Shown here: positions 1 to 35,935 of the stretch, piece after piece
Position numbering within the stretch: the stretch's first letter is position 1
How the letters are laid out: the number at the start of each line of letters is the position of its first letter
Assembly (NCBI RefSeq): GCF_030013595.1
Contig: NZ_CP122768.1
Length of the DNA stretch: 64,000 nt
Reading direction: 5' to 3' (one strand)
DNA from: Escherichia coli
GTDB lineage: Bacteria; Pseudomonadota; Gammaproteobacteria; Enterobacterales; Enterobacteriaceae
Notes under the pieces: generated by a model
The model's input: the letters and a program-made list of their open reading frames with translations, nothing else
The model's database searches: none
What the model was told of the DNA's origin: nothing
Made by a program: the position numbers and the translations under genes

Positions 1-883
1 TTCTCTTTTTAAACTGTATGTCTTCTGGATTTCCCACTAACTGACTGAAATCTCCTTTCATAACTCTTTCGCTTGTTTCAAAGAGCTGTATTGCTATCGA
101 GTCGATTAATTCCTTTTTGGACAGAGATGCTTGTTCATAAAATTTGGTGACTAACTCTGTTGGTAACTTTCTTGAGACGACTTTAATGGACAGTCTCTGA
201 AATAGGTAAGGTGCCACCACGCCCACACTGAAAGGGTGAATCCTCCCTGGATTTAATAATTTTATTGTGACGTTTTCAAAAACTAGCTCATTGATTTTAC
301 TATTTATGAATTCCATTAAATACTTATCTAATGATAATGTTACCGACGCAACCGCTTCTATCACTTGTTTAAATGGCTCGCCTTTCAAGGATTTAAAAAA
401 CTCTTTGTTATAACCAAAGAAATCCACAAAACCTAAATTTATTCGATTTTCTTCTTTAGTATTTGAAATGCGAATTTGAAGTTGTTTTAAGTCTTCATCG
501 GTCAAGTATTTTAAACCATAGTCATCAAGCGCGTTACGTATAACTTTATCTGCAGATTCTAAGTCGATTACAGTTTTTACATTAAAAAACAATGATAACA
601 ATGAATCATACTTATGAACTCGCAAGGTTAAATCTGTTGCATTTGATGCGGTTACATTTATACGTCTCAAAAGATCAATAACTTTACTAATTGGTAGGCT
701 GTTTTCAAAAATTTTGAATGACTCGTATTCAGATACAACATCTTTTATATACTTACTGATAGTATGAGACTTTATTTCCACCTCAACTTCGGTTGAGTAA
801 GAATGAATTAGTGAGTTTGTAGTTTCAGCGATGTCATTTGATACATACAACTTATATTCGAAACAATCAGGAGCGGGAAGCAA
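1..883 (-). CDS. hypothetical protein, partial (continues past left window edge); AT-rich accessory gene
   Basis: Open minus-strand frame from 883 to position 1 (>290 codons, translated by hand); no in-frame ATG near the 5' end, candidate GTG start at 779-781 after GAAG; different frame from the upstream ORF; ~30% GC. Confidence 0.4.
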   Translation of the reverse strand, partial: MLPAPDCFEYKLYVSNDIAETTNSLIHSYSTEVEVEIKSHTISKYIKDVVSEYESFKIFENSLPISKVIDLLRRINVTASNATDLTLRVHKYDSLLSLFFNVKTVIDLESADKVIRNALDDYGLKYLTDEDLKQLQIRISNTKEENRINLGFVDFFGYNKEFFKSLKGEPFKQVIEAVASVTLSLDKYLMEFINSKINELVFENVTIKLLNPGRIHPFSVGVVAPYLFQRLSIKVVSRKLPTELVTKFYEQASLSKKELIDSIAIQLFETSERVMKGDFSQLVGNPEDIQFKKR

Positions 884-1233
884 CTATTATCAATAATGGA
901 AAACAATAAAAATTTAATTATTTCTCTTAATGCTTGCGGTCTAGTTATTCTACCTTGCATTTTTTTACATTGTATTAAACCACTTACAACACCGTTATGG
1001 TATAGCACGCAGTCGCGTCCTCTTTCAGAAACTCCTTGCATTAAAGATATTGAGGATATATTTTTATGCTTTCCATCTTCAATTTCGTTCTTTACTAACA
1101 AATAACATAGCAACTCAAATTCTCGATCACCTAATTCTGAAAAGGGAAGCAATCCGATACCAGAATCTATAGTCCATGGTCTATATCCTGATTGAGCCTC
1201 GATATTAATTTGTTCGTCACTGATTTTTTTCAC
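808..1233 (-). CDS. hypothetical protein with PD-(D/E)xK-like motif (GRD...16 aa...IQCK)
   Basis: 141-aa ORF, GTG start at 1231-1233 with AAGGAG 6 nt upstream; AT-rich; motif recognised by eye only. Confidence 0.45.
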   Translation of the reverse strand: MKKISDEQINIEAQSGYRPWTIDSGIGLLPFSELGDREFELLCYLLVKNEIEDGKHKNISSISLMQGVSERGRDCVLYHNGVVSGLIQCKKMQGRITRPQALREIIKFLLFSIIDNSCFPLLIVSNISCMYQMTSLKLQTH

Positions 1234-1248
1234 TTAAATCTCCTTCTA

Positions 1249-1277
1249 ATCTTATTGACCTACTCCCTACATTGTAA
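1249..1277 (-). promoter_or_regulatory. putative sigma70 promoter (TTACAA-17-TAAGAT) for the 808..1233 ORF
   Basis: -35/-10 hexamers with 17-bp spacer read on minus strand just upstream of the RBS. Confidence 0.3.
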
Positions 1278-1548
1278 CAGGGGATGATGATAAGGTGTAT
1301 CTTTCGAGCTATAAGCACGATAAATAAGTGATTAAAAATGACTCTTTAAACTATTTTAATTTAAAAAATTAATTGTTAGTTCTAATTATGGTATGAGGGC
1401 ATTTTCGGCATAGTTCTAACCATATACTTTGGTAAAAATGACTGTTACGGAACAGACCATAGTAATGCCTGCTATTGGCACGGAGCGGGCCGCCTGAGCG
1501 CCGTGGGGTCTGCAAACGGTAAGCATACCGATAACTATACGCTTGGCC

Positions 1549-1968
1549 TTAGTAACTTTTGCTCCCCTCAATAAATCCGCCATCTTTTATCGGACTGCAA
1601 TGTCCTTCTTCATCAATCAGTTGCTCGTCTTTCAGGTAGGTATATCGATAGATAATTGAGCCATTATCCATCTCACCATTGGTTCGTTTCATTAGGAGAG
1701 TAAAATGTAACGGGCTGTCCCTATATCGAGCTATTCCATGAATATTGGCAAGTACCTCATATTGACGCTCAGGTGATAACCCTTTAAATACATCGAGATA
1801 TCCATGGAATGTTCCATAGAGTGAAGAAGTGTAGATCAGTCGCTGCTCTGGACCAGTAACTTTAAGAGTAATTTGTTCACCCGTATTACAGGTTAGCTTG
1901 GCGGGAAATGTCTCAGCCTGAGCAGAAGAAATAGTCAAGCTTAAAATTATCAGGTAGCAATATTTCAT
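1549..1968 (-). CDS. small secreted/periplasmic protein of unknown function
   Basis: ATG at 1966-1968 gives 139 aa with N-terminal signal peptide MKYCYLIILSLTISSAQA; two Cys in mature part; longer track ORF has an implausible N-extension. Confidence 0.5.
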   Translation of the reverse strand: MKYCYLIILSLTISSAQAETFPAKLTCNTGEQITLKVTGPEQRLIYTSSLYGTFHGYLDVFKGLSPERQYEVLANIHGIARYRDSPLHFTLLMKRTNGEMDNGSIIYRYTYLKDEQLIDEEGHCSPIKDGGFIEGSKSY

Positions 1969-2250
1969 GTGATTAGAATGTCCAAAACTAACATGTATAC
2001 TCGGGATTCTATAACTAGTTGGATGTAGACCCAAGATGTATTGGACTATTCTTCGGTTGTAGTTGGTCAAATCATATATTTTATGTCAGCAATGTCTACT
2101 TTTGGCACATAGCAGACCAGAGACACTGGCGTAAAGCCATGGAGGATCGGTGGGAGGAGGTAAAAATCCTCTCATGCAAAAAATACGCAAAATCGATAAC
2201 AGTTGGAAATCATTCAATACTCGCACTATCGGAAGTTCACCAGCCAGTCG

Positions 2251-2298
2251 TAGCACGTTCTTGCATATGACGTGGCTACGGGTTTCGAGACCGACCCG
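2251..2298. repeat. degenerate direct copy (~85%) of the pin 3' end plus its downstream hairpin
   Basis: Aligns base-by-base with 3272..3320; contains imperfect dyad GTAGCACG..CGTGGCTAC. Confidence 0.5.
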
Positions 2299-2376
2299 AT
2301 CATCAAACGAAACATAAAATTAGCTCACATTATGAGGAAAGGTATCTTTTTGCGCTATGTAAATTCAAAGGGTTAG

Positions 2377-3246
<870 letters not shown>

Positions 3247-3271
3247 GTCTTTAAGTGATAAGCATAAACCG

Positions 3272-3320
3272 CAGCACGATCTTGCATACGACGTGCTACG
3301 GTTTCATTTATCTCCGACCG
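3272..3320. terminator. hairpin between convergent GIY-YIG gene and pin (likely bidirectional terminator); partner of repeat at 2251..2298
   Basis: Dyad AGCACG-13 nt-CGTGCT followed by GGTTTCATTT; overlaps last pin codons. Confidence 0.45.
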
Positions 3321-3894
3321 GAAACTTCTTATACAAAGTCGATACACCCACATCGTAGATAATCGCCACCTTCTGGCGAGGAGTTCCTGCTGCAATTAAT
3401 CTTCCGGCTTGTGCCCATTGTTCTGGTGTAAGTTTGGGACGACGTCCACCAATTCGTCCCTGTGCGCGAGCAGCTTCCAGTCCAGCTTTTGTTCGTTCAA
3501 CAATCAGTTCACGCTCCATTTCAGCCAGGGCACCCATCACATGAAAGAAAAAGCGTCCCATTGGTGTGCTGGTATCAATTGAATCCGTCAGACTATGAAA
3601 GTTGATGCCTCGTTCGCGCAACTCCTCCACCAACACGACAAGATGCCGCATACTACGCCCCAGCCGATCCAGCTTCCAGACAACCAGAGTGTCACCTGCC
3701 GATAATGTCCTGAGCAGTTTTTTCAGTCCCGGCCTTTCGGACTTTGTGCCGCTTATCTTGTCTTCAAAAATCAGCTCGCATCCTGCACAGTTCAGCGCAT
3801 TACGTTGTAGATCTGTGTTCTGGTCATTTGTTGATACGCGTACATAGCCAATAAGCATGGTAGATCCCCCTGACAAAAGCAGGAATGATGCCAT
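3304..3894 (-). CDS. pin: DNA invertase Pin (Gin/Hin/Cin serine recombinase family)
   Basis: 196-aa ORF begins MLIGYVRVSTNDQNTDLQRNAL, near-identical to recalled e14 Pin. Confidence 0.95.
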   Translation of the reverse strand: MASFLLLSGGSTMLIGYVRVSTNDQNTDLQRNALNCAGCELIFEDKISGTKSERPGLKKLLRTLSAGDTLVVWKLDRLGRSMRHLVVLVEELRERGINFHSLTDSIDTSTPMGRFFFHVMGALAEMERELIVERTKAGLEAARAQGRIGGRRPKLTPEQWAQAGRLIAAGTPRQKVAIIYDVGVSTLYKKFPVGDK

Positions 3895-3912
3895 TTGCTC
3901 GTTATTTCTGCA

Positions 3913-3938
3913 TTTTCATAAACGTTGGTTTGGGAGAA
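3913..3938. repeat. gix/pix-like inversion crossover site (pin-proximal)
   Basis: TTTTCATAAACGTTGGTTTGGGAGAA; reverse complement matches 5774..5799 at ~20/26 and fits the AAACC..GGTTT core of Gin/Hin sites. Confidence 0.6.
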
Positions 3939-4283
3939 GCGGCAAAGAGGAATGTGGGGACAGGAGAAAATCAGGTACCGGATATGAACAGCTTTGGTAA
4001 CTCATTGACCGCCAATGGATACCAGAAATTACCTGGGGGGATGATTATTCAATGGGGGAGTTTTTCTGTCTCACCAACCGGAGGAAGTGTTGGAACAGTT
4101 GATATAACATTACCTGTAGCTTTCCCTGCTGCTTGTCGTTCGGTAAACGCTCTTATTTCAACTAATGATCCTTCTGCCCGTTCTGTGGGCTTTGATATTG
4201 GAAGTACCAACAGAACTAAAATCAGATTTACTTACACTTCTGCTACAACAAATTCAATTTACTGGATGGCTGTGGGGTATTAA
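3939..4283 (+). CDS. alternative tail-fibre C-terminal segment (Sv'-like), silent in this orientation
   Basis: In-frame coding begins at the crossover site; followed by a tail-fibre-assembly gene; upstream part of track ORF 3885.. spans the recombination site. Confidence 0.6.
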   Translation, partial: AAKRNVGTGENQVPDMNSFGNSLTANGYQKLPGGMIIQWGSFSVSPTGGSVGTVDITLPVAFPAACRSVNALISTNDPSARSVGFDIGSTNRTKIRFTYTSATTNSIYWMAVGY

Positions 4284-4285
4284 CT

Positions 4286-4717
4286 ATGGAAAAGACATAT
4301 TATTTTAATCCCTCTGATTCGGGATTTTATATTTCACCAGATAGCCAAACCATTCCTGAGAACGCTACGAAAATAAACTTTACTATTTATTCTGAGTTCG
4401 CAGGAGTTGCATGGCCTGATGGTAAAATACTTGGTTCAGATAAAAATGGTTTTCCAGCATGGCAGGATGCGCCACCACTTACCAGCGAAGAATTAATCTC
4501 AATCGCTGAATCAAATAAACAGCGATTAGTTAATCAGGCCAACGAATACATGAACAGTAAACAATGGCCTGGTAAAGCGGCGATTGGTCGTCTGAAAGGT
4601 GAGGAACTGGCGCAATATAATTTGTGGCTGGATTATCTGGACGCACTGGAACTGGTCGATACTTCCAGTGCGCCAGATATTGAATGGCCTACTCCTCCGG
4701 CAGTTCAGGCCAGATGA
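4286..4717 (+). CDS. tail fibre assembly protein (alternative, U'-like)
   Basis: 143 aa; C-terminal [12 protein letters not shown] motif typical of Tfa proteins; inside invertible segment. Confidence 0.75.
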   Translation: MEKTYYFNPSDSGFYISPDSQTIPENATKINFTIYSEFAGVAWPDGKILGSDKNGFPAWQDAPPLTSEELISIAESNKQRLVNQANEYMNSKQWPGKAAIGRLKGEELAQYNLWLDYLDALELVDTSSAPDIEWPTPPAVQAR

Positions 4718-5294
4718 CATCCGGCGCGGTACTGGTATCTGTTGCCGTCACCGCGTCAATGTAATCCAGCACAGTGTTAAGTCGGGTGGTCTCTGCCTGC
4801 ATCAGCTTCCGCCCGGCCTGCAATTTCAGTTGAATCAGACTAATGGAAGCCATTGCAGTATCAATCAGTGACTGACGTTGTGCTTCTGCCGCGTCTACTG
4901 CGGCGCTATGCTGTGTCTCAGTATCCGTTACCCATTTCTCACCATCCCATTTATCGTATGGCGTTAACGGGGCGATAGTGGTTGTTTTTTCGGGGTAATC
5001 ACCCGGAGTTGTGATTTCTTTGGCGTCTCCCGTTTCGGTGTTATAGACGATTTCACCGCGATGGTCTGGTACATATTCCCATGAGTTAAAATCTGCAGAG
5101 CGGCAGATTGCATAACCAGCTTTGTAGGTGCCTGGAGCATCTAAACAGGAATATGCCGGAATGCCGACACCAACAGCAAGATATTCAGTTGAAGCTGAAA
5201 TATACTCCCGACTCATGACGTCAAAGTTATAAACAGTAATTTCTCCTGCCATAGTGGCAATTAATTCACTGTTTAATTCTGCGTTATTCATCAT
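4689..5294 (-). CDS. tail fibre assembly protein (expressed orientation, U-like)
   Basis: 201 aa; C-terminal [15 protein letters not shown]; directly downstream of tail fibre gene. Confidence 0.8.
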
Positions 5295-6076
5295 GCGGCC
5301 CTCACAATATAATTAAAGGCGATGTTACGTGGACGATTTTCATTTGCTGTTGGAACAACATTTGCCGCCGAGAAGTGAACATCTTGTCGGATTTTTCGGT
5401 CATTAGCGTATGTCATAGACACATTGATGTTATTCCGGACTGAGGTACCTCCGTAAAAAGCTCCACTCACACTTTGAACATCGACAATTGCATTAATTTC
5501 GCTGTTTACGCGCAACTGACCAAAACCGCCAGTAATGTTTCGAATAGCATCTCCTTGCGATGAAAGCAGAGTTCGCCCACTATCCACACCACGTTCATCA
5601 TCCCAGCCACGAATAAACTCACCGCGTAAATCAGGCAATTTATTTGTCGGGTAAGACTTTGCCAGTTCCGGGTATTCTTCAGCAGAAAAAGCCGCACCAT
5701 TGCATTTCAGCCAGCCTGTTGGTGGAGTGGCTGAAGGCCACGGAACAGGCACACCAACGGGTAATGCCGAACCTTCTCCCAAACCAAGGTTTTCGAGAGC
5801 TGTTTTCACCGTGCCATCCGATTTGATATCGCCAAACGGATTCTTGCGGCTTAACAGCAGCGCACGAAGCGCGGTAAGCAGCTGGTCATGCCGCCCCTTC
5901 TCCAGGCTGGCACCGGATGCCTCCACAACGCTGCAAAGCTCCTCCTGCAACATGTCAAAGTAGTCATCATCCAGATCGGTGGCAGGCGTGCCGGTCTGGG
6001 GGTTACCACGGGTAAAACCGTTCTTACCCGCGCCGAACTTATCCTTCTGCGCGGTTTTCGTGTCTATACGATGCAT
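5291..6076 (-). CDS. tail fibre protein (constant N-part fused to variable C-part)
   Basis: 261 aa; contains second crossover site about 92 codons in; position after Mu gp48-like gene. Confidence 0.8.
5774..5799. repeat. gix/pix-like inversion crossover site (inside tail fibre gene)
   Basis: TTCTCCCAAACCAAGGTTTTCGAGAG, inverted repeat of 3913..3938. Confidence 0.6.
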
Positions 6077-6079
6077 GGA

Positions 6080-6664
6080 TTACTCCGGATATTTAAAAAT
6101 CACATAGGTATGCGACGGGCAGAGTTTGTTAAGAACACACTCGACAACGGTGTCCCCCCAGAAGCGCAGCGCGGAATCACAGGGATCGCCACATGTCATC
6201 CAGGTGGTGTTGGTGGCGGCTGGCATGTTGACCTGCCAGTAATACCGCCATTCAGGCGCATTCACCGCGTCAGTACAGGCCGATGAGCAGGTGAACGTGC
6301 TTTTGTCGTATCGCGTGATGTTGGCATCCAGTCTGCCCAGGGCAGCAAGCTGTGCAAGATAAAAATTCTCGTTGATGCCGCCCGCCAGGTTAACCTTCGC
6401 ATCCAGCCGTTGCTGACGCTGGCGAAGGGTCTGTGTCCCTGTAGGAATACATTCATCCGGCAGGCCGCACAGACGCTCCCAGCGATTTATCAGTTCGGTG
6501 GTGGTGCGCGGATCCAGCTCCCGCATCAGGGCATCCGCACGCTGATGAACGCGGGTTAATGACGGTGCCGCACCGGCAATCGCCGGATCGCTGGCTGACC
6601 ACGCCGGACCGGGCGGCAACAGTGCTGACAACAGACGGATGTAATCATCGTTTGTCACGTCCAT
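6080..6664 (-). CDS. Mu gp48-like tail protein (YmfQ/DUF2313 family)
   Basis: 194 aa; resembles e14 YmfQ-type protein; position between baseplate J and tail fibre. Confidence 0.75.
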
Positions 6665-7713
6665 GAAATCGCCCCCAGAACCGCCAGTTCATTTTTTGCA
6701 ATGGTGATATTGTCCGCCGGTGCAAGCAACTGATGGCTGTATTCCCCGTTCGCACCGGAAATCGCTTCACTGATACGTGACACCTTCAGTTCTCCCTGCG
6801 GATAACCATCACGCAGCAGGAACGAACGCAACTCCGCGGTGATGGCAGCCCGTATTTCCGGTGTGTCCGGCGTAACACGGATATGAAAATCCACCGTATG
6901 TGCCACCGGCCTGAACACATACAAATCAGAGCCTGCCACCGGGGCCAGTGGCCCGATATGTTGTCTTGCCGCCGTTTCCGTTGATTCTTCCGGAATGGGA
7001 TTAATCAGGTCACTGCTGGCAATCATCACACCGACAGTCCCCGTTCCCATCCAGTGTCGGTATGTCCATGCGCGGGTAATGCCAGGCACTTCTTTAGCCC
7101 AGACGACATAGTCCCCGTCAGCCCCGCCCTGCGGCGTCCAGTAATACCGCTCAATGACGCGGGCGCGCCACGTTTCCAGCTCTTCAGTATCAAATCCGCC
7201 TGTCAGGGTGTCAGCCACACCGGAAGACGGCAGACCATTCACCGGCGTGACCAGGATTAATGCCGTACCGTCGTCAGCGTTACCGACCGCACCTGCACTT
7301 GAGCAGGCGATCGGCACGCGCAGGACACCACCGGAGCTGATTGCATCGTCAGTTGTCGTGTACTGCACCAGGTCATCGCGCTGAATAACACTCCCGGCAG
7401 TCACCTTCAGGCCATCGCTGACACCTTCCCAGCGCATATACCCGCTGGCAACCGTGGCTCCCTTGCGCGGACACCGTTTCATCGCAGCATGTCGCGCCAA
7501 CCAGGACTCATCGCACAGGTCAGGCAGCATATTCATTGCCAGATAATCGATGTAACCGTAGACCGTATGCAGCGCCGCCGCATACACCTTTGCCCGCACG
7601 TCTTCATCCATGCGCCGGAGCGTGTCGCTGACGTCCAGCCTGGCGAATAAATCGTTACGGAGCATACTGATATTTTCTGCCAGCGTCGGGCGCTGAAATT
7701 CACTGTCCGCCAT
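6655..7713 (-). CDS. baseplate J-like protein (Mu gp47-like)
   Basis: 352 aa; family resemblance and synteny. Confidence 0.8.
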
Positions 7714-8128
7714 GCGTTATCGCACTCCACAGATCATCAAAAGAAATCATTACTGGTCCATCACGACGCCAGAGGGTGATACTGTTACCCAGCTCATTAA
7801 TCCCGGTGCGGCGGATATCCAGATCAATACGGGACACCACGCCGTCATCAGTCATCCATTGCAGGCATTCGCGGATATATCCCCTTACCGTCTGCACCAG
7901 CTGATTGGTCAGTTTGCTGCGCTGAAGCAGCCACAGTCGGGAGCCGTAACGGTCATTCTGTACCGCAGGCCAGGTATCCCCCCACCATCCCATCGGGACG
8001 TCGGCATTGTCATCAGGCTCCGCCCGCCGCCAGGTGAACAGGGAAATCACCACGGCGCGGGTCAGCGGATCCAGCGGTGCGCTGGCGCAGGTGCGTTTAC
8101 CGTTCACCGTCAGCCACAGTTCCATCAT
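7700..8128 (-). CDS. baseplate protein, GPW/gp25-like (Mu gp46-like)
   Basis: 142 aa; synteny in Mu-like baseplate block. Confidence 0.75.
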   Translation of the reverse strand: MMELWLTVNGKRTCASAPLDPLTRAVVISLFTWRRAEPDDNADVPMGWWGDTWPAVQNDRYGSRLWLLQRSKLTNQLVQTVRGYIRECLQWMTDDGVVSRIDLDIRRTGINELGNSITLWRRDGPVMISFDDLWSAITHGGQ

Positions 8129-8673
8129 GCCTCCATCGCTTTATCAGGTTTGTCGGTGTTACTGCCCTGACCGTTCTCTCTGTGACGATGCCCGTTATAG
8201 GCAAGCCGCATCGCTGACATGGTGGTGCCGCCGGAGTCGCACAGGTCTTTCACTTGTCCGGTCACTTCCAGATCCATTTCAAAACGTGCTTCAGTTGCAT
8301 TGCGAAACGTGATCGTTTTCCCTGCACCGTCCACCACGATCCCCTCCCGGGTCAGCGTCACAGACTGCCCCTGATCGTCATAGACAGCCACCTCACCCGT
8401 CTGCAGCCCTTTCAGGCGGTAGCGCCGGTCCGACACCGTAACAACCACCGCATGAGAACGGTCGCCATCCGGAAACAACACCACCGCTTCCGCACCGCTG
8501 TTTGCCCTTGCGGTAAAACCGTAGGGTTCAAGATGTTCAACCCCGGCTTTGGGTTCACCGGCAATCAGGGACACATCCACGGTCTGACATTTCGTGGCGG
8601 CACTGATGCTTTTCACCACGGCCCGCCCAATCAGGCCGAGAAGTTGTCGCTGCATGGCTTCAATCGTCCTCAT
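8125..8673 (-). CDS. baseplate assembly protein V / spike (Mu gp45-like)
   Basis: 182 aa; synteny and family resemblance. Confidence 0.75.
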   Translation of the reverse strand: MRTIEAMQRQLLGLIGRAVVKSISAATKCQTVDVSLIAGEPKAGVEHLEPYGFTARANSGAEAVVLFPDGDRSHAVVVTVSDRRYRLKGLQTGEVAVYDDQGQSVTLTREGIVVDGAGKTITFRNATEARFEMDLEVTGQVKDLCDSGGTTMSAMRLAYNGHRHRENGQGSNTDKPDKAMEA

Positions 8674-9752
8674 CAGAACGGGTCCTCCTGTACTCTGGCT
8701 TTTTTCTTTTTCCGCGCGCCGGGGGCTTCGGGTCCAGGCAGATAAGCATCAGGCGGGCCGACACGGATTTCCGTCAGGGTGCCGTTCTGGTCCTGAGTAA
8801 ACGTGACTTCCGAGACAAGCAGTTCGGTATTGTCGAAACCACAGACCGGATCGAAGACAATCACCCGCTGGTTGGGCTGCCACAGCGTACCGTTACCCTG
8901 TCGCCAGCCCTGCACCACATAGGTGGTTTCATCCGTCCGCGCCGCCCGTTGCCGGGCTTCAAAGTCAGCACGCGCAATACAGCCTGCCCCCGTAGCCTGC
9001 CCTGTCTGCCTGATATACATCGGACGGTAACGGGCAATAAATGCGTCTTCTGTGCGGGCCCGCAGCGCGGTGGTGGTGGCCTCACCGAAATCATCGTCGT
9101 TTCCGGCACGCTGCCCCGCCACCTGGTAAACAGAAAACCGCTCCCGGATACTCTTCTCCGTATCGCAGGAAAGGATGTTTTCCCCGAGTACCAGCGCGGT
9201 ATGTGCCCGCGTTGAGCCAATACCGCCAATCACCAGCCTGCCGTGCGAGTCGTCGTAAGCCAGCGCCTGCTGCTGACCGAGTATTTTGTTGATCACCTCG
9301 ATCACCGTTTCACCGTGATCAGGCTGGACATCAGGAATAACACCCGACGGCGCACCGCTGTTCACCACCTCAATGCCGAAAGGCGCAGCAAGCGCCTGCG
9401 CAATCTGTACCAGCGATCGTCCGTTAAACTGTGTCGGTTCGGCTGCACAGTCAATCAGGTCAGCGGTCAGACTACGTCCGGCAATACCGGTGCTGACCGA
9501 ACGGGCATCGTAACGAACGGGCGTCGCCTCCACCCAGCCAGTGATCACCAGCTCATCACCAATCAGCACTTCCACTTTTGAACCGTTTTTAATGCGCGGC
9601 TGAAGCGTGGTGATACCCTCATCTCCCGGCCACTGGCGGGTGATCTCCACACTGAAATCCCGCGCCAGTCGTTCAACACCGGCACCGATGCGCACCGATG
9701 TCCAGCCATTCCACTCCCGGCCATTTACCCGTAGCGTGACGTTATCGTTCAT
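8673..9752 (-). CDS. Mu gpP-like tail protein (baseplate hub)
   Basis: 359 aa; synteny after DNA circulation protein. Confidence 0.8.
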   Translation of the reverse strand: MNDNVTLRVNGREWNGWTSVRIGAGVERLARDFSVEITRQWPGDEGITTLQPRIKNGSKVEVLIGDELVITGWVEATPVRYDARSVSTGIAGRSLTADLIDCAAEPTQFNGRSLVQIAQALAAPFGIEVVNSGAPSGVIPDVQPDHGETVIEVINKILGQQQALAYDDSHGRLVIGGIGSTRAHTALVLGENILSCDTEKSIRERFSVYQVAGQRAGNDDDFGEATTTALRARTEDAFIARYRPMYIRQTGQATGAGCIARADFEARQRAARTDETTYVVQGWRQGNGTLWQPNQRVIVFDPVCGFDNTELLVSEVTFTQDQNGTLTEIRVGPPDAYLPGPEAPGARKKKKARVQEDPF

Positions 9753-19910: not shown

Positions 19911-21129
19911 TGGCGTTATCCTTCTGCTTACCGGCTTTACTGCCATCGGAGGGCTTCGTGGTCATGTTCATCGGTGTGAGATAGACATCACCACCGGGAC
20001 GCGGATTCATATCTTCCAGGTCGCGGCAGTCATTGGGAGAGTAAATTCCCCAGTTGATCCCGGTGGCGTAGGCTTCAAAACGGGACTTCATATCCCCGCG
20101 CAGTAACGCCCCGGCGTTAAATTTGGCGTAATAAACACCCTGCTTACTTTTTCGTACCAGTCCGGTGTTGATCCGCTGCTCAATGCGGGTCAGATACGGC
20201 ACCAGTGAATAGTTGATAAATCCGAGCCCCAGCTCTTCGATATTGTTGAAGGTGGCGCGATCGGTGTTCTGCACCATGTGCAATGGCACACGGAACAGAC
20301 GACAAATTTCTTCAAGCTGAAACTTGCGGGTTTCCAGGAACTGGCTGTCCTCTGCGTTCAACGCCATCGACTTCCAGTCCAGCCCCATCTCAAGGATCAT
20401 CGGGCGGTGAGCATTGCCAAGCCCGGTGTGACGCTCCTCAAAATCTTTCTTCAGGCGCTCATAAGCCTGATCCGACAGCGTCTGCTCTGTACGCAACACA
20501 CCCGACGTCACCGCGCCATTGCTGAACAGTCTGGCCCCGTGCTCTTCGGTCGCTGCCGCCAGCGATATTGCCTCGCGGGCATAGGCGATGGGATTCAGCC
20601 CCACCAGTCCGTCCAGCGTCAGCGTGCGCACATGCCAGATATCCTCCTGGCTCAGTACATCCGTGGAGCCATCCGGGAATGTGACCTGATAGATCGGCTC
20701 CCAGCTACTGTTAAGCTTCGGTACCACACAGCCGGGATCGACGGGCAGCAGTTCAGCCACTTCGCCAAATGCTTTCACTTTGTAGGCGTAAAAGTTTCCC
20801 CGCAGGCACAGACAGGTGACCACCAGCTCCCAGAACTCCTGCGGCGTCATATAGTCATTGGGATGCGTGGAGATCAGCTTATGCAGACGTTCGCCAGTGG
20901 CTCTCTGCTTCAGGCTGCCGTTCAGGTGATACAGGTTGCAGGGCAACATCCCGACCGACTCCGCCAGCACCCTGACACAGGAAAAAACCGCCGTCAGTCG
21001 CATGGCCCGCTGGCTGCTGATCTGCTTTCCGGTATAGGTGTCGTAGGACAACCCGATAGCATCCGCCAGCTCTGCTGGCGTGGTCACCGGTGCGTCACTT
21101 TTTCGTTGAAATAATCCCGAAAAGAACAC
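19888..21129 (-). CDS. portal protein
   Basis: 413 aa; between terminase and protease. Confidence 0.9.
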   Translation of the reverse strand: MFFSGLFQRKSDAPVTTPAELADAIGLSYDTYTGKQISSQRAMRLTAVFSCVRVLAESVGMLPCNLYHLNGSLKQRATGERLHKLISTHPNDYMTPQEFWELVVTCLCLRGNFYAYKVKAFGEVAELLPVDPGCVVPKLNSSWEPIYQVTFPDGSTDVLSQEDIWHVRTLTLDGLVGLNPIAYAREAISLAAATEEHGARLFSNGAVTSGVLRTEQTLSDQAYERLKKDFEERHTGLGNAHRPMILEMGLDWKSMALNAEDSQFLETRKFQLEEICRLFRVPLHMVQNTDRATFNNIEELGLGFINYSLVPYLTRIEQRINTGLVRKSKQGVYYAKFNAGALLRGDMKSRFEAYATGINWGIYSPNDCRDLEDMNPRPGGDVYLTPMNMTTKPSDGSKAGKQKDNANADETTS

Positions 21130-21311
21130 TATTTACCTCCGCCGACAGACGACTGTGTACGGTCGAGATATCGCGCCACCAGCCACGACCAGAACAGGCA
21201 CAACGCCCCGGCAACAACAAACCCCGCCGGGGGATAAATCAGCCAGGCACCATACGCCAGCAAAAGCGCCCCCAGCACGCCCACCAGAGGCGCGAGAATC
21301 AGCATGATCAT
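21129..21311 (-). CDS. small two-helix membrane protein
   Basis: 60 aa, two hydrophobic segments; between terminase large subunit and portal. Confidence 0.35.
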
Positions 21312-21322
21312 AATTACCTCAG

Positions 21323-23056
21323 TTAAAGCGAGCGGATCCCATAGGACTCAATGTGGTCAGACAACGTGTCTTCTTTCTCGTACAGCATGGCTCTGCCAAC
21401 CGCCATAATCAGCGCAACTGCACCATCGATTTTGTTTTCCGCCTGCTCTTTGACGGGCTTCACCACATCATCGTTACCCGGAATGGTTTTGCCGACCACG
21501 TTGCCGATACACCAGGTCATGATGGGATTGCCATCATGATGAAAGCGCCCCGATTCAATTGCCGCTTCCAGCTCTTTCATCGGGTCGGACATGTTGGTGT
21601 AGTTCTGAATGATAGTGATGGGGTTCAGGTCTTCATCAGCCAGGTCATGTGACAGCCCGGTCGCCCCGAAGGGGTCGATGGGTGACTCACTGACCGGGCT
21701 GATTTTGTTCGCCGCTTTGGCCTCCTCGAGGATGTAGCGATAATCCACCTCCGCACCATCGGTAACGGTCAGAACGCCCATTACCACCCATTTCTGAAAG
21801 CGTTCGGCTGTCCGTCGATCTTCATTTTTCTCGACACTGTACACCGTGTCATACGGTACCCAGAAACGCGGGGCCACACTGTAGTAATGCGTTTTACCGT
21901 CAATCTCGCGGGTATAAAGTCGCGCCATGCTGTTCATATCCAGCTTACGCGCCAGGTCAAAGGCCAGAATGCACGGCTGCCCCTCGAACTGCTCAAGGGT
22001 CAGTGATTTATCCTCGCAGCTCTGCCAGCTCACCAGGTTGAAATACGCCGAACGCGCCGACACCCAGATATTGAGGTGCTTTGTTTTAAAGACGTTTGCC
22101 AGACGGGCGTTATTTTTCGCACGCTGCTGCTGACTTAACAAAAATTCGCGATAAACCGACACGCCAATATTCGGGTTAGCTTTTTCCAGCACCTGCGGGT
22201 CGGTCCAGTCATCGCCTTCGTCAACGGTATAGATGATCCCGAACAGTTCATCGTTGGGTACCGACCCGTTGAGCATCTCGATAACTTCCCGCCGCTTGTC
22301 GTAGCACGGCCCCTCAATGTTGTACCCGGCAGTAGTAATGGCCCACATCAGTGGCTGACGTCGCGCCCCCATCCCGGTAAGCATCGTGGTGTAAAGCGCA
22401 TCGGTGGCGTGCTCGTGATATTCATCCACCACCGCACAGTGGGGTGATGATCCATCACCGGGGTTACCGATCAGCGGTTCAAACCGCGCGCCATCCTCCG
22501 GACGGTTCATGTTTGAGGCGTTAACCTCAATCCCGAACGCTTCCGTCAGCATGGGCGTGCGTTTACACATCAGTCGCGCCGGGCGAAAGACTTCCCACGC
22601 CTGTTTCTCTGTCGTGGCACCGGAATACACTTCCGCGCCAAACTCGTTATCACAGGCAAAACAATACAGGGCAACACCGGCAGAGATTGCTGATTTGCCG
22701 TTCTTACGGGGGATTTCGGTATACACCTCCCGGAAGCGGCGCAACCGGGTGCCTTTATTGACCCAGCCAAACGCACAGCAGATCACAAAGAGCTGCCACG
22801 GCTCCAGCGTGATGGGCATCCTCTTGAATGCCCACTCACCCTTGGTGTGCGGCAACAGCTGAATAAATTTGGCGGCCCGTTCAGCCAGGTCCTTGTCGAA
22901 GCGGTAACGAAACGACTTACTTTTTTCCGCCATCAGGTCATCAAGATGGCGCTGGCAGGCCTGAATCACAAACTGGCAGGCCACAATCTTTCCGCGAACG
23001 ACATCCCGGGCATACTGATTGGCAGCATTTACGTTGGGGTAAGATTTCCGGCTCAT
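21323..23056 (-). CDS. terminase large subunit
   Basis: 577 aa; ATPase-nuclease family resemblance. Confidence 0.9.
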
Positions 23057-23556
23057 GATTCGATGATTTTCAGAAACGGGTTAGTAGCTTTCTTCTGCCC
23101 CGCCAGGCCAATCAGACGCTGGCGGCTGCTGGGGTCGAGTCCGAGCATTGCCCCCGTGCTGCTCATCTCGGACTCCTGTTCTTTTTTGGCGGTCAGCTCA
23201 GGATTTTTGACCATACCGCCCATTGCACCGGTGATGGTGTTGCCCTGTCTGGCAATATTTTTCACGGCACGTCGCCAGAACTCATAGGCCACACACCACC
23301 GCTCAAGCACCGCGAGGTCAGTCACGCACAGCAGGCCCTGACCGCAAAGTTCTTTAGTTGTCAGTTGCCACATGATCGTGGCGAGAGGGAGATCTTCTTC
23401 AGCGAACCACTCCGGTGGCTCAACACCTTTGATGGGCGTAAAAACAGGTTCATCTTTATTCAGGGCTCGCTTGCCGGGGTTTCCGGCCAGCGCCTTGCGC
23501 GCCGTTGGCTTGGGGCGACGCCCGGAACGCCCCGCCGTTCCAGCCATATGCGGCAC
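23053..23556 (-). CDS. terminase small subunit (P27 family)
   Basis: 167 aa; 4-nt overlap with large subunit. Confidence 0.8.
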
Positions 23557-23672
23557 TCCTGGTTAAATTTCATTTTTCGCGGGTATAAAAAAACGATGGG
23601 GCGGGCAGTCCGGAAGACGTCAGGTCACAGAGATTTGACCCGCCCCTCCCCTCAGACAGTTGAGAATTATTA

Positions 23673-24023
23673 TCACTTTAGCCGTTCACGGGCCGTCTTC
23701 GCCTTATGGCACGGCCAGCACAGGCTCTGCAGATTACTGTCTGCATCGGTGCCGCCATGCGCTTTAGGGATGATGTGGTCAACGGTTTTCGCCTCACGCA
23801 CCACACCAGCACGCAGACATAACTGACACAGGCCTTTGTCACGCTTCAATATGCGCGCGCGGATACTGTCCCACTTCGAACCGTAGCCGCGCTGATGACG
23901 GGATTGCCCCGGCTTGTATTGTTTCCAGCCTTCGTTTTTGTGGCTTTCGCAGTAGCCTGACGGGTCTGTAGTGGTATTACGGCAGCCGCGAACGCGGCAG
24001 GCTTTTGGGATTCGTGATGGCAT
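23673..24023 (-). CDS. HNH endonuclease (packaging-associated)
   Basis: HNH motif DHIIPKAHGGTDADSNLQSLCWPCHKAKT plus Cys-rich zinc ribbon; ATG 24021-24023 with GGAG 5 nt upstream. Confidence 0.85.
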   Translation of the reverse strand: MPSRIPKACRVRGCRNTTTDPSGYCESHKNEGWKQYKPGQSRHQRGYGSKWDSIRARILKRDKGLCQLCLRAGVVREAKTVDHIIPKAHGGTDADSNLQSLCWPCHKAKTARERLK

Positions 24024-24149
24024 ATGTACTCCAATGAAGAAGCCACCGACATAGCCTCCTCCATTCATCGTGAAACTATTTTCATCTACGCAGTCATGAA
24101 TTCTTTGTAGAGTTGTGATCAATACAACTCACTAATGGAGAGGCTTGTC

Positions 24150-24171
24150 CAACACGTTGGACAAGTTTCCT
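24150..24171. repeat. perfect 10-bp inverted repeat with 2-bp spacer (CTTGTCCAAC-AC-GTTGGACAAG), then T-rich tract
   Basis: Read directly; could be an operator or an orphan + strand terminator. Confidence 0.4.
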
Positions 24172-24246
24172 GTTTGATTTACTGGACACTATAGAAGGAC
24201 AGAATGCCTTCCTCACTCGAATAACATTAATTAAGGAGGTTCAACA

Positions 24247-25575
24247 CTGATGAATCCCCTAATGATTTTGGTAAAAATCATTAAGTTAAGGTGGATACAC
24301 ATCTTGTCATATGATCAAATGGTTTCGCGAAAAATCAATAATCAGACAACAAGATGTGCGAACTCGATATTTTACACGACTCTCTTTACCAATTCTGCCC
24401 CGAATTACACTTAAAACGACTCAACAGCTTAACGTTGGCTTGCCACGCATTACTTGACTGTAAAACTCTCACTCTTACCGAACTTGGCCGTAACCTGCCA
24501 ACCAAAGCGAGAACAAAACATAACATCAAACGAATCGACCGATTGTTAGGTAATCGTCACCTCCACAAAGAGCGACTCGCTGTATACCGTTGGCATGCTA
24601 GCTTTATCTGTTCGGGCAATACGATGCCCATTGTACTTGTTGACTGGTCTGATATTCGTGAGCAAAAACGACTTATGGTATTGCGAGCTTCAGTCGCACT
24701 ACACGGTCGTTCTGTTACTCTTTATGAGAAAGCGTTCCCGCTTTCAGAGCAATGTTCAAAGAAAGCTCATGACCAATTTCTAGCCGACCTTGCGAGCATT
24801 CTACCGAGTAACACCACACCGCTCATTGTCAGTGATGCTGGCTTTAAAGTGCCATGGTATAAATCCGTTGAGAAGCTGGGTTGGTACTGGTTAAGTCGAG
24901 TAAGAGGAAAAGTACAATATGCAGACCTAGGAGCGGAAAACTGGAAACCTATCAGCAACTTACATGATATGTCATCTAGTCACTCAAAGACTTTAGGCTA
25001 TAAGAGGCTGACTAAAAGCAATCCAATCTCATGCCAAATTCTATTGTATAAATCTCGCTCTAAAGGCCGAAAAAATCAGCGCTCGACACGGACTCATTGT
25101 CACCACCCGTCACCTAAAATCTACTCAGCGTCGGCAAAGGAGCCATGGGTTCTAGCAACTAACTTACCTGTTGAAATTCGAACACCCAAACAACTTGTTA
25201 ATATCTATTCGAAGCGAATGCAGATTGAAGAAACCTTCCGAGACTTGAAAAGTCCTGCCTACGGACTAGGCCTACGCCATAGCCGAACGAGCAGCTCAGA
25301 GCGTTTTGATATCATGCTGCTAATCGCCCTGATGCTTCAACTAACATGTTGGCTTGCGGGCGTTCATGCTCAGAAACAAGGTTGGGACAAGCACTTCCAG
25401 GCTAACACAGTCAGAAATCGAAACGTACTCTCAACAGTTCGCTTAGGCATGGAAGTTTTGCGGCATTCTGGCTACACAATAACAAGGGAAGACTTACTCG
25501 TGGCTGCAACCCTACTAGCTCAAAATTTATTCACACATGGTTACGCTTTGGGGAAATTATGAGGGGATCTCTCAG
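24247..25575 (+). mobile_element. IS10, complete 1329-bp copy
   Basis: Outside end CTGATGAATCCCCTAATGATTTTGG at 24247, inside end CTGAGAGATCCCCTCA (reverse complement) at 25560-25575; flanks GGTTCAACA and TATTAAGCG differ, so no 9-bp duplication. Confidence 0.95.
24354..25562 (+). CDS. IS10 transposase
   Basis: 402 aa beginning MCELDILHDSLYQFCPELHLKRLNS, matches recalled IS10 transposase over its length. Confidence 0.97.
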   Translation: MCELDILHDSLYQFCPELHLKRLNSLTLACHALLDCKTLTLTELGRNLPTKARTKHNIKRIDRLLGNRHLHKERLAVYRWHASFICSGNTMPIVLVDWSDIREQKRLMVLRASVALHGRSVTLYEKAFPLSEQCSKKAHDQFLADLASILPSNTTPLIVSDAGFKVPWYKSVEKLGWYWLSRVRGKVQYADLGAENWKPISNLHDMSSSHSKTLGYKRLTKSNPISCQILLYKSRSKGRKNQRSTRTHCHHPSPKIYSASAKEPWVLATNLPVEIRTPKQLVNIYSKRMQIEETFRDLKSPAYGLGLRHSRTSSSERFDIMLLIALMLQLTCWLAGVHAQKQGWDKHFQANTVRNRNVLSTVRLGMEVLRHSGYTITREDLLVAATLLAQNLFTHGYALGKL

Positions 25576-25604
25576 TATTAAGCGTCAATGAGCGTCTGGA
25601 AAGA

Positions 25605-26519
25605 ATGAAAGGCAGGCGCTCAGACATTACGGTGACAGAATGGCTTGATAAATATATTTCTATCCAGGAGGACAGGCTGCAACATAATGAACTAAGACCC
25701 AACTCCTATCGGCAAAAAGGCAAACCCATTCGTCTTTTCCGTGAGCATTGTGGAATGCAACACCTCAAGGATATTACCGCACTTGATATTGCCGAAATAA
25801 TTGATGCTGTAAAGGCTGAAGGTCATAACAGGATGGCGCAAGTCGTGAGAATGGTGTTGATCGACGTCTTCAAAGAAGCACAACACGCAGGACATGTTCC
25901 GCCAGGATTTAACCCAGCGCAGGCAACAAAACAACCGCGAAATCGAGTAAACCGCCAAAGATTGTCACTGCCCGAATGGCAGGCAATATTTGAAAGCGTA
26001 AGCAGACGGCAGCCCTATTTAAAATGCGGCATGCTACTTGCTCTTGTTACTGGACAACGTTTAGGCGATATCTGCAATTTGAAATTCTCTGATATATGGG
26101 ACGACATGTTGCACATTACTCAGGAAAAAACCGGTTCAAAACTTGCTATTCCGCTTAACCTGAAATGCGATGCTCTGAATATTACCCTTCGTGAAGTTAT
26201 ATCTCAGTGCAGGGATGCTGTTGTTAGTAAATATCTGGTCCATTACCGTCACACTACCTCTCAAGCAAACAGAGGAGACCAGGTTTCTGCAAATACTCTG
26301 ACAACGGCTTTTAAAAAGGCCCGGGAAAAATGTGGCATAAAATGGGAGCAAGGAACTGCGCCCACATTTCATGAGCAGCGATCTCTGTCAGAACGGTTAT
26401 ATCGGGAACAGGGTCTGGATACGCAAAAGTTGTTAGGCCATAAATCCAGAAAAATGACCGACCGATACAATGATGATCGTGGTAAAGACTGGATTATCGT
26501 AGATATCAAAACAGCATAG
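25605..26519 (+). pseudogene. lambda-family tyrosine integrase lacking the N-terminal arm-binding domain
   Basis: 304 aa aligning to lambda Int from about residue 65; catalytic motifs (HxxR, LLGH, DRY) intact; frame closes at a stop inside the IS10 end. Confidence 0.8.
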
Positions 26520-26529
26520 AAAATAGCCA

Positions 26530-26565
26530 GTTTTGGGGAAGGGTTTTGGGGAAAGTTTTGGGGAA
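26530..26565 (+). promoter_or_regulatory. three direct 11-bp repeats GTTTTGGGGAA (candidate integrase arm-type sites)
   Basis: Copies at 26530, 26543, 26555 between int stop and icd stop. Confidence 0.4.
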
Positions 26566-26580
26566 GATTTTACATCATCA

Positions 26581-26609
26581 TAAAACAACGGGCGTGTTAT
26601 ACGCCCGTT
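26581..26609 (-). terminator. icd transcription terminator
   Basis: 9-bp stem AACGGGCGT/ACGCCCGTT, 5-nt loop, U-rich tail on minus strand just after icd stop. Confidence 0.6.
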
Positions 26610-26632
26610 TCAATATTTAACACATGTAGAGA

Positions 26633-27883
26633 TTACATGTTCTTGATGATTGCATCACCAAACTCGCTGCATTTCAGCAGTTTAGCACCTTCCATCAGAC
26701 GTTCGAAGTCATAGGTTACGGTCTTGGCGTTGATTGCGCCTTCCATACCTTTAACAATCAAGTCTGCGGCTTCAGTCCAGCCCATATGGCGCAGCATCAT
26801 CTCAGCGGAGAGAATAATAGAGCCTGGGTTTACTTTGTCCTGACCGGCATATTTCGGCGCAGTACCGTGGGTGGCTTCAAACAGGGCGCATTCGTCACCG
26901 ATGTTTGCGCCTGGGGCGATACCGATACCGCCGACCTGTGCAGCCAGAGCGTCAGAAATGTAGTCACCGTTCAGGTTCATACAGGCGATAACATCATATT
27001 CAGCCGGACGCAGCAGGATCTGTTGCAGGAATGCGTCAGCAATCACGTCTTTAATGACGATCTCTTTGCCGGTATTCGGGTTTTTAACTTTCAGCCACGG
27101 GCCGCCGTCGATCAGTTCACCGCCAAACTCTTCACGCGCCAGCTGGTAGCCCCAGTCTTTAAACGCGCCTTCGGTGAACTTCATGATGTTGCCTTTGTGC
27201 ACCAGGGTCACAGAGTCACGATCGTTAGCAATTGCGTATTCGATCGCTGCACGAACCAGACGTTTGGTGCCTTCTTCCGAACACGGCTTAATACCGATAC
27301 CGCAATGTTCCGGGAAGCGAATTTTCTTCACGCCCATCTCTTCACGCAGGAATTTAATCACTTTCTCGGCGTCGGCAGAGTCAGCTTTCCATTCGATACC
27401 CGCATAAATGTCTTCCGAGTTTTCACGGAAGATAACCATATCGGTCAGTTCAGGGTGTTTAACCGGGCTTGGAGTGCCCTGATAGTAACGTACCGGACGC
27501 AGGCAGATGTAGAGATCCAGTTCCTGACGCAGGGCAACGTTCAGAGAGCGAATACCGCCACCAACCGGAGTGGTCAGCGGACCTTTAATGGCAACGCGAT
27601 ATTCACGAATCAGATCAAGGGTTTCAGCAGGCAGCCAGACATCCTGACCATAAACCTGTGTGGATTTTTCACCGGTGTAAATTTCCATCCAGGAGATTTT
27701 ACGCTCGCCTTTATAGGCTTTCTCGACTGCAGCGTCGACCACTTTCAGCATGGCTGGGGTTACATCTACACCGATTCCATCACCTTCAATGTAAGGGATA
27801 ATCGGATTTTCAGGAACGTTGAGTTTGCCGTTTTGCAGGGTGATCTTCTTGCCTTGTGCCGGAACAACTACTTTACTTTCCAT
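26633..27883 (-). CDS. icd: isocitrate dehydrogenase (NADP)
   Basis: 416 aa, [45 protein letters not shown]; full-length match to recalled E. coli Icd. Confidence 0.97.
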
Positions 27884-35934: not shown

Positions 35935-35935
35935 C

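Follow-up and report, generated by a model that had tools for sequence, protein, structure and literature searches.

An intact IS10 at the joint of a 16.9-kb early-region deletion in an icd-integrated lambdoid prophage of Escherichia coli

Prophage A lies in the 64-kb stretch of Escherichia coli DNA analysed here (the window) and, as judged by comparison with its relatives, is an icd-integrated lambdoid prophage whose late module is of e14/P27 type and whose early region and Int are of lambda type, and from which one block has been lost. The lost block is contiguous, measures approximately 16.9 kb and extends from the spacer between the HNH endonuclease gene and bor to codon 66 of int, with a single IS10 at the joint. 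It contained bor, Rz, the genes for lysozyme and holin, Q, the nin genes, cargo, ren, P, O, a cro-like gene, cI, SIR2, kil, gam, bet, exo and xis. IS10-linked deletion of prophage DNA is a known kind of event, and no new mechanism or element is involved. The deletion accounts for a full structural module without early genes as well as for a short integrase, and its exact endpoints can be given. Its value lies mainly in annotation and bookkeeping; as a natural example of an IS10-associated deletion it is clean, near-identical relatives without the deletion being available, and it hints at a spot in int where insertion sequences land repeatedly.

The IS10 element and the deletion endpoints

The element occupies 24247..25575 (+ strand, 1329 bp), with its outside end on the left and its inside end on the right, and is designated ISVsa5 family by NCBI; matching genomes annotate it as an IS4-like ISVsa5 family transposase. 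The 23-mers of the outside end (24247-24269, +) and of the inside end (25553-25575, -) match exactly. Each of these sequences, which we take to be the canonical IS10 ends, occurs once in the 64-kb window (chance expectation 0), and the same scan found no second IS10 there. The assumption is borne out by the IS10 copy of E. coli CH4794, which shows 0 mismatches to the window element over 1329 nt, and the element is complete to the final nucleotide at both joints. The transposase ORF (24354..25562, +, 402 aa) matches the IS4 family model NCBIfam NF033591 with 404 bits against a cutoff of 152, and its TGA stop (25560-25562) lies in the same frame as the truncated integrase ORF, 15 codons upstream of it. 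The antisense RNA-OUT is encoded at 24292..24361 on the minus strand (Rfam RF00240, 98.8 bits against a gathering score of 41, full-length model match).

Regarding the flanks, the initial annotation had described an intact IS10 between unlike 9-bp sequences, and re-inspection bore this out. The left flank GGTTCAACA (24238..24246, in the HNH-bor spacer) and the right flank TATTAAGCG (25576..25584, inside int codons 67-70) are identical at only 4/9 positions, and no 9-bp direct repeat surrounds the window IS10. The CH4794 copy serves as a positive control for simple insertion, as it is bordered by a perfect 9-bp duplication, GACTTAGCA / GACTTAGCA. Each flank of the window element fits 4/6 specified positions of the IS10 target consensus NGCTNAGCN; according to a binomial calculation, such a match arises by chance with a probability of ~0.04 per flank, which argues for joints made by transposase. 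Ranking the endpoints by consensus match to find the primary insertion gave no separation, with 4/6 at both.

The endpoints were mapped, as the initial annotation had proposed, by comparison with intact homologues. On the left, contig L047 is 100.000% identical to window 19892-24246 and, from the exact junction nucleotide, continues (...GGTTCAACA|TGTTTCATTCC...) into bor and on to xis. L041 and L043-L046 show the same continuation past the junction, with 99.98-99.99% identity over 12.9 kb. The undeleted relatives include GCA_053634315.1, GCA_053639275.1, GCA_002968075.1 and GCA_002925925.1. The icd prophage in L002, whose early region shares 98.9% identity with that of L047, maps the right endpoint: the right flank aligns from nucleotide 200 of the 1143-nt int gene (L002 19802-20944; junction L002 20000/20001), and L002 is 100% identical to the window from the right joint onward, through int and attR. 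Both flanks of the IS10 keep their native relative orientation and are collinear with the undeleted relatives. Since these relatives, which are draft genomes 99.98-100% identical to the left flank, carry the early block from the junction nucleotide, the gap represents a real deletion of approximately 16.9 kb. For recognition of the lineage, a look-up of the HNH protein was too unspecific (1951 blocks), and the large terminase and a frameshifted cargo ORF were used as markers.

The surviving part of prophage A (1..24246, minus strand) is collinear with the annotated relatives L001 and L004 and is 99.97-100% identical to lineage contigs L025-L028 and L041-L047. It carries cargo genes, a Pin invertase with an invertible fibre segment (3920-5792), a Mu-like baseplate, a contractile tail, an HK97-type head, a portal and terminase. 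The packaging genes had been placed to the left of IS10, and they do lie there on the minus strand: the HNH endonuclease gene (23673-24023), whose start codon is 223 nt from the IS10 outside end, the P27-family small terminase gene (23053-23556, TIGR01558) and the large terminase gene (21323-23056). Together they form the promoter-proximal end of the remaining late operon, next to IS10 (21323..24023). No excision, repressor, replication or lysis genes were found in window 1-24246, in agreement with the initial annotation; only the late and cargo part of the relatives is present. The antiterminator of a functional inducible prophage is likewise absent from this stretch, and the tape-measure gene (11761..13593, -) is interrupted internally, Gln256 having become a TAG stop. 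L043, which keeps the early region, shares this stop, and L042 has the gene intact. As the stop is shared with undeleted relatives, the prophage was already defective before the deletion, and the view of the initial annotation that the defect resulted from the deletion needs to be revised.

The icd attachment site and the truncated integrase

The right border of the prophage is formed by attR (26582..26791, -), which consists of the phage-supplied icd 3′ end and terminator and is duplicated at attL with 97.6% identity; the icd ORF (26633-27883) is intact. attL, a 210-nt icd 3′ repeat followed by non-phage DNA, lies ~750-960 nt to the left of window position 1 and was read in the near-identical contigs L025-L028, which extend beyond the window and are 99.97-100% identical to its positions 1-11233. 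The early region is therefore deleted and has not moved to another part of prophage A, since attL already follows at ~750 nt from the window start. The int stop is followed, ahead of the icd terminator, by GTTTTGGGGAA in three exact tandem copies (26530..26565, +), which by comparison with lambda attP are probably the P′-arm Int arm-type sites. L002 and L012 have the same triplet, and L025 has a single near-copy next to attL.

These borders bear on a reading in which no deletion occurred and the structure is a junction of two prophages or an assembly misjoin across repeated IS10. In the two-prophage version, an IS10 x IS10 inversion or translocation would have joined the late genes of a prophage at tRNA-Thr (thrW) to the int of the icd prophage, and a second IS10 with reciprocal flanks (TGTTTCATT... 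and ...CGACAAA) would be expected. Such an origin would fit the best complete-genome matches to 1-24246 (TK3896, UID2309220003, ten loci), all of which are at tRNA-Thr/proA and none at icd, and the absence of the same joint from every complete RefSeq E. coli genome. That the closest complete-genome relatives occupy a different attachment site calls for caution in such comparisons, as these phages are mosaic. The lineage contigs, however, show the icd′ attL ~750 nt beyond the window start, and PRDF01000170.1 (the contig of L027 and L045) links attL via the whole late module to bor, which places the late module at icd in this lineage. The flanks also stand in native orientation, and the right joint is reproduced in the independent assemblies L014 and L010, the latter from the same clone as the window. 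The junction of two prophages was rejected after the attL just past the window and the contig joining it to bor had been found, and the reading as a whole is hardly credible.

The lambda-type integrase gene is truncated at its 5′ end (25576..26519, +; codons 67-380), and codons 1-66 of the 380-aa full-length protein are missing. The first in-frame ATG is at 25605, from which an ORF of residues 77-380 remains. Since Pfam Arm-DNA-bind_1 (PF09003) covers residues 1-71 of the full-length homologue, the statement that the integrase starts mid-gene without an arm-binding domain proved correct. The catalytic domain PF00589 spans residues 200-367 of the full-length protein and is also recorded on the 304-aa window product, which matches lambda Int (PDB 1z1b) with an E value of 1e-55 and keeps both the core-binding and the catalytic domains.

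The int endpoint recurs outside the window. A second int haplotype has IS10 directly at that int nucleotide, with the joint contained in L014 and a contig break at that point in L008; breaks at the right joint are found throughout L008-L010, L010 being the same clone as the window. Genomes with IS10 at the int site are GCA_026549125.1, again the same clone as the window, GCA_031929545.1, GCA_014972285.1 and SRR25521803. Only the right joint was seen in this way; no other assembly independently showed the left joint (HNH|IS10). The uninterrupted int is known for both haplotypes, the second in L012 and that of the window in L002. A third group of genomes has an IS3-family element in int at 9-12 nt from the IS10 site.

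Possible routes to the deletion

An insertion of IS10 followed by a transposase-promoted adjacent deletion, in either order relative to the two endpoints, is the favoured route and has about an even chance of being correct. One IS10 would have transposed into the 9-bp site TATTAAGCG in int, and its transposase would then have linked the outside end to a second target on the same chromosome, GGTTCAACA, at a distance of 16.9 kb, with loss of the intervening DNA and of one copy of the original duplication. The mirror order would belong to the same explanation, with insertion into the spacer first and the inside end then attacking the int site. A precursor of the int-first order would read ...CGACAAATATTAAGCG|IS10|TATTAAGCGTCAATG with the early region still in place. 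Adjacent deletion by IS10 is documented (Roberts et al. 1991, cited in PMC11708052) and is reported to occur at low frequency. The IS10 in the same int site of the second haplotype is a point for target choice by transposase over random breaks.

A second explanation, possible but short of an even chance, holds that the HNH-bor spacer and int each received an IS10 in the same orientation, by independent insertions, and that RecA-dependent recombination between the two 1.3-kb copies then removed the interval and one IS10. The surviving element would keep one insertion's left duplication and the other's right duplication, so that the predicted product is exactly the observed one, namely an intact IS10 between plausible 9-bp targets and collinear flanks. 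Missing duplications have two common causes, adjacent deletion and IS x IS recombination (PMC11708052). Many E. coli carry several IS10 copies, at up to 45 places in one genome, and insertions of IS10 recur in this prophage region, as upstream of xis in CH4794 and at the int site. The explanation nevertheless requires two same-orientation hits within 17 kb. Neither of the single insertions, nor the pair, turned up in any relative among the genomes and contigs searched, and the 64-kb window holds just one IS10. As far as the final sequence goes, adjacent deletion would leave the same product as recombination between two copies of IS10.

Searches for intermediates did not separate these two routes. 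Among 5426 complete E. coli genomes, synthetic queries for the one-site precursor junctions gave 0 places with a coverage of at least 80%. The read-through product predicted for Int(1-66)-IS10, looked up as an exact sequence, was not on record, and the exact junction patterns had 0 matches in viral contigs and metagenome contigs. As draft assemblies break at IS10, a missing precursor is weak evidence. The joint and structure of prophage A were likewise found in none of the 5426 complete E. coli genomes; the sole partial match, CH4794, has an IS10 that inserted independently, upstream of xis, and is flanked by a normal duplication.

It is very unlikely that a different process, for instance a break or slippage during replication, caused the deletion, with IS10 integrating into the break during repair without duplication. 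Deletion-coupled movement has been proposed for IS5 and IS481 (PMC11708052), and a repair-coupled capture of IS10 would likewise give a product without duplication. Against this, the 9-mers on either side are similar to the IS10 target consensus, the int endpoint matches the IS10 joints of another haplotype to the nucleotide, and the proposal is itself unproven for IS10. Of the initial proposal of an insertion in int followed by adjacent deletion, the deletion with IS10 at its joint is upheld (L047/L002); the specific route is not established, as a first insertion in the HNH-bor spacer or two direct IS10 copies would give the same sequence and the searches for intermediates were negative.

Consequences for the prophage and comparison with known systems

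With neither Xis nor the arm-binding domain of Int, prophage A would be unable to excise by itself, although attL and attR are intact. The loss of Q and pR′ would leave the late operon without a promoter of its own, and the IS10 promoter pOUT would be the only upstream promoter facing it. In line with the initial annotation as far as orientation is concerned, pOUT lies just upstream of RNA-OUT on the minus strand and is directed leftward, out of the outside end, towards the HNH-terminase operon. No minus-strand terminator is predicted between IS10 and HNH, and read-through from pOUT into adjoining genes has been described (PMC9330008). Expression of the HNH-terminase genes may be driven by pOUT. 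A sigma-70 consensus scan of 23500-25800 returned no promoter and was uninformative, as it missed even the known pIN and pOUT.

In a broader reading, which appears improbable, the int stretch 25576-25585, between the arm-binding and core-binding domains, would be a recurrent landing site and deletion endpoint for insertion sequences, through which icd-site prophages in unrelated E. coli lineages have been immobilised again and again, and pOUT would now be the sole driver of a complete head-tail-terminase operon devoid of its regulators. On that reading, the event would represent a selected step in prophage domestication, not neutral decay.

Compared with IS10-Right of Tn10, the window element has the same length of 1329 bp, the canonical ends, the 402-aa DDE transposase and, encoded on the opposite strand, RNA-OUT at element positions 46-115. 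It differs from a simple IS10 insertion in that the 9-bp target duplication is missing and its flanks lie 16.9 kb apart in the intact prophage. With the IS10-promoted adjacent deletions of Roberts, Ascherman and Kleckner (1991), and with the IS150 ‘IS-Del’ events and IS x IS recombination of the Lenski lines (PMC11708052), it shares one complete IS at a novel joint, a deletion that begins exactly at an IS end, and the lack of a duplication. There is no difference in kind from these documented IS-associated deletions; the present case is known only as an end product in natural isolates. The residual int ORF (77-380) resembles the C-terminal fragments of lambda Int (PDB 1z19, 1p7d, residues ~75-356), which also lack the arm-binding domain, and the 283-residue lambda Int chains in the PDB align to query residues 85-378. 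Unlike those constructs, it has no promoter of its own and stands behind a very weakly expressed transposase gene.

As in other lambdoid prophages at the icd site (e14 of K-12 and phage 21), int of prophage A adjoins icd, and the phage replaces the icd 3′ end, leaving the host copy as a pseudo-fragment at the far end. The late genes are of e14 type, carrying the names ymfQ, ymfR and pinE in the relatives. Prophage A is also comparable to ‘grounded’ prophages, which are immobilised through lost int/xis function (PMC6379469). In K-12, e14 has shed most of its head and tail genes but retains int, xis and the repressor region, whereas prophage A is the converse, with a full late module and the early region gone.

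IS10 and its two flanks

A complete copy of the known element IS10 occupies window 24247-25575 (1329 positions). Both termini are exact: the outside-end 23-mer (CTGATGAATCCCC...) is at 24247-24269 (plus strand) and the inside-end 23-mer at 25553-25575 (minus strand), and each is found once in the window with none expected by chance. The transposase ORF (24354-25562, 402 aa) scores 404 bits against the NCBIfam IS4-family model, and the antisense RNA-OUT is a full-length Rfam match on the minus strand (24292-24361, element positions 46-115; 98.8 bits vs gathering score 41). E. coli CH4794 has an IS10 copy identical at 1329/1329 positions, which served as a positive control for the appearance of a simple insertion and is bordered by a perfect 9-bp duplication (GACTTAGCA / GACTTAGCA). 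The flanks in the window differ, with GGTTCAACA on the left and TATTAAGCG on the right; re-inspection for identical 9-bp duplications revealed none, consistent with the intact element and unlike flanks described in the initial annotation.

To the left, window 1-24246 contains late or cargo genes only, all on the minus strand: cargo ORFs, the Pin invertase (3304-3894) with an invertible fibre segment, a Mu-like baseplate, sheath and tube, an HK97-type capsid and protease, and finally portal, large terminase, P27-family small terminase and HNH endonuclease, whose start codon (24023) is separated from the IS10 outside end by 223 nt. In annotated relatives, the genes that come after HNH are bor/iss, Rz, lysozyme, holin, Q, nin genes, ren, P and O, followed by cro, cI, kil, gam, bet, exo, xis and int; none of the genes from bor/iss to xis is present in the window. 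The packaging genes are thus on the left of IS10, and prophage A has no excisionase, repressor, replication or lysis genes, as had been proposed.

To the right, the sequence from 25576 onward matches, at 99.8-100% identity, the 3′-terminal 944 nt of a gene annotated as "site-specific integrase" that adjoins icd in >1600 complete E. coli genomes. The best match is Z1323PEC0014 (L002), an icd prophage with a full-length int of 1143 nt, which the window enters at nucleotide 200, thereby lacking codons 1-66; translation from the first in-frame ATG (25605) would yield 304 aa, residues 77-380. Full-length Int is a homologue of lambda Int (PDB 1z1b, E 1e-55) with Pfam arm-DNA-binding (residues 1-71) and catalytic (residues 200-367) domains. 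Therefore, the integrase begins mid-gene and its arm-binding domain is entirely gone, in agreement with the initial annotation. The interval from the int stop to the icd terminator contains three exact tandem GTTTTGGGGAA repeats (26530-26565), and a single near-copy is found beside attL (L025 11848). On the model of lambda, these are likely candidate P′-arm Int arm-type sites for the lost domain. The icd gene (26633-27883) is intact. The icd-to-potB backbone (25576-39377) shows ~2% divergence, distributed evenly, from most of the E. coli loci compared, and is nearly identical to GCA_026549125.1 (1 SNP in 10.9 kb); L010 belongs to the same clone as the window (1 SNP in 10.9 kb). Homology to L002 ends at 39377, and a second prophage (39378-64000) starts 9 nt before the potC start, with the last potB codons altered; it is myovirus-like and on the minus strand, with tail fibres, sheath, lambda-type large terminase, portal and major head protein.

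Two further features were observed at the junctions. The transposase stop (TGA, 25560-25562) shares the frame of the shortened int ORF and lies 15 codons upstream of the int ATG (window 25560-25607), and read-through or a point mutation would join transposase to Int residues 67-380; this arrangement is probably a coincidence. On the other side (window 24233-24414), an AAGGAGG precedes the ATG of a 40-codon ORF in the intact phage, and the junction splits this ATG between A and TG. The motif is now ~10 nt upstream of ATG 24250 within the outside end; ATG 24250 heads a 54-codon ORF overlapping the pIN/RNA-OUT region.

Extent of the missing block

Draft contigs were retrieved with the exact large-terminase protein as a lineage marker. 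Five contigs (L041 and L043-L046), which match 12.9 kb of the left flank at 99.98-99.99% identity, run past the junction position into bor and lysis genes without IS10. L047, an undeleted relative retrieved by a second look-up with the cargo esterase from one draft contig, is 100.000% identical to window 19892-24246 and continues across the junction from ...AAGGAGGTTCAACA directly into TGTTTCATTCC..., then through lysis, Q, nin, replication, immunity and recombination genes as far as xis, at the contig end. The L047 early region shares 98.9% identity with its counterpart in L002, and the int/attR of L002 is the same as the right flank of the window. Comparison with intact homologues, as suggested initially, thus places the endpoints in the HNH-bor spacer (L047) and at int nucleotide 200 (L002), and a composite of L047 and L002 puts the missing block at 16,689 + 223 nt (~16.9 kb). 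As both flanks keep their native relative orientation, the early interval is absent, not inverted. An IS10-associated deletion of about this size very probably occurred. None of the complete RefSeq E. coli genomes exceeds 98.8% identity to the prophage flank. In L038 (GCA_002080495.1), the same HNH-terminase late module abuts chromosomal sulfatase and radical-SAM genes without the early region, indicating that the early half of this phage type has also been lost in other ways.

The complete genomes closest to window 1-24246, TK3896 and UID2309220003, carry the prophage at tRNA-Thr/proA, and 10/10 cargo-protein contexts returned lie there, beside pao or CP4-6-type DNA, which raised the question of whether IS10 had mediated a rearrangement of two prophages. 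In the window, a hypothetical cargo gene of 488 aa is frameshifted after ...FSIIDNS (window 1-1233, minus strand), and the resulting 141-aa ORF (808-1233) provided a lineage-specific marker for the left end. Contigs with this marker (L025-L028), 99.97-100% identical to window 1-11233, reach ~1 kb further left into a 210-nt copy (97.6% identity) of 26582-26791, the icd 3′ end and terminator, with non-phage DNA beyond. PRDF01000170.1 (seen as L027 and L045) spans this attL, the entire late module and bor in one contig, so the late module belongs to the icd-site prophage in this lineage, and a two-prophage junction was rejected. With attL beside the late module in near-identical contigs and the flanks in native orientation, a rearrangement or assembly artefact is the least probable reading of all. 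What the thrW relatives have in common with it is simply a mosaic module of late and cargo genes. The prophage appears to be bounded by icd repeats; the repeat ~1 kb beyond the window start leaves no room on the far side for a displaced early region.

Origin of the junction and recurrent insertion in int

The IS10 target consensus is reportedly NGCTNAGCN, attributed to Halling and Kleckner 1982. Both GGTTCAACA and TATTAAGCG fit this consensus at 4/6 specified positions (binomial chance ~0.04 for each flank), which argues that both joints formed by IS10 strand transfer, not random breakage, and makes IS10 insertion into a break very unlikely. A lone complete IS at a deletion joint without duplication is classically produced by either transposase-promoted adjacent deletion or homologous recombination between two direct IS copies (both reviewed in PMC11708052, where Roberts et al. 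1991 is cited for IS10), and the two predict the same sequence. A single IS10, most likely first in int, followed by transposase-promoted adjacent deletion would have about an even chance of being the actual course. Two direct IS10 copies followed by homologous recombination is a possible but less favoured origin. One-site IS10 intermediates were looked for in complete E. coli genomes, in viral and metagenome contigs and by an exact look-up of the predicted Int-IS10 product, and none was found. Insertion in int with adjacent deletion, as first proposed, is plausible without being uniquely supported.

In L014, whose int haplotype is 3 SNPs from that of the window, the IS10 inside end is also joined to TATTAAGCG, and contigs L008 (L014 haplotype) and L009 break <=3 nt from the same int position. 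L010, of the window's own clone, belongs to the same set. This recurrence marks the site as a preferred IS10 target, which could serve primary insertion or intramolecular attack. Both haplotypes also occur uninterrupted (L002, L012). L005-L007 carry an IS3-family element with a group II intron reverse transcriptase 9-12 nt further into int. Judged from these joints, the short stretch at 25576-25585 appears to have been interrupted independently in different lineages, by IS10 in two haplotypes and by the IS3-family element. The L005 "prophage" has shrunk to attL icd′, McrBC, an acyltransferase, the IS and int′.

Consequences and relation to known elements

The tape-measure gene (11761-13593, minus strand) contains an in-frame CAG-to-TAG change at codon 256 (Gln256 to stop). 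The TAG is shared by L043, in which the early region is still present, while L042 has CAG; the stop is therefore older than the IS10-linked deletion. Thus, the deletion, initially held responsible for the defective prophage, did not make the defect. The fibre segment (3920-5792) is bounded by 20-nt inverted repeats; L025 has it in the opposite orientation to the window, L026 and L027, with flanks 99.96-100% identical, indicating that Pin was recently active in a defective prophage. Loss of xis and the Int arm-binding domain should block self-excision, with both att sites kept.

From the outside end, the outward promoter pOUT and RNA-OUT face left, into the genes for HNH, small terminase and large terminase, the orientation anticipated earlier. 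The 223-nt spacer has no predicted minus-strand terminator, and the deleted block includes the phage's own late promoter region (Q plus DNA downstream of Q). Read-through from pOUT into neighbouring genes is known for IS10 (PMC9330008), and pOUT may be a candidate driver of the HNH-terminase genes here.

The event is a member of a well-known class of IS-associated deletions and is nothing new in kind; only the repeated insertion of IS elements into a short int stretch across lineages is of mild interest. The prophage that hosts IS10 is lambdoid, of the e14/phage 21 type and located at icd, and is now a "grounded" prophage (PMC6379469). Its retention is the converse of that in K-12 e14, as the prophage in the window keeps the late genes without the early genes.
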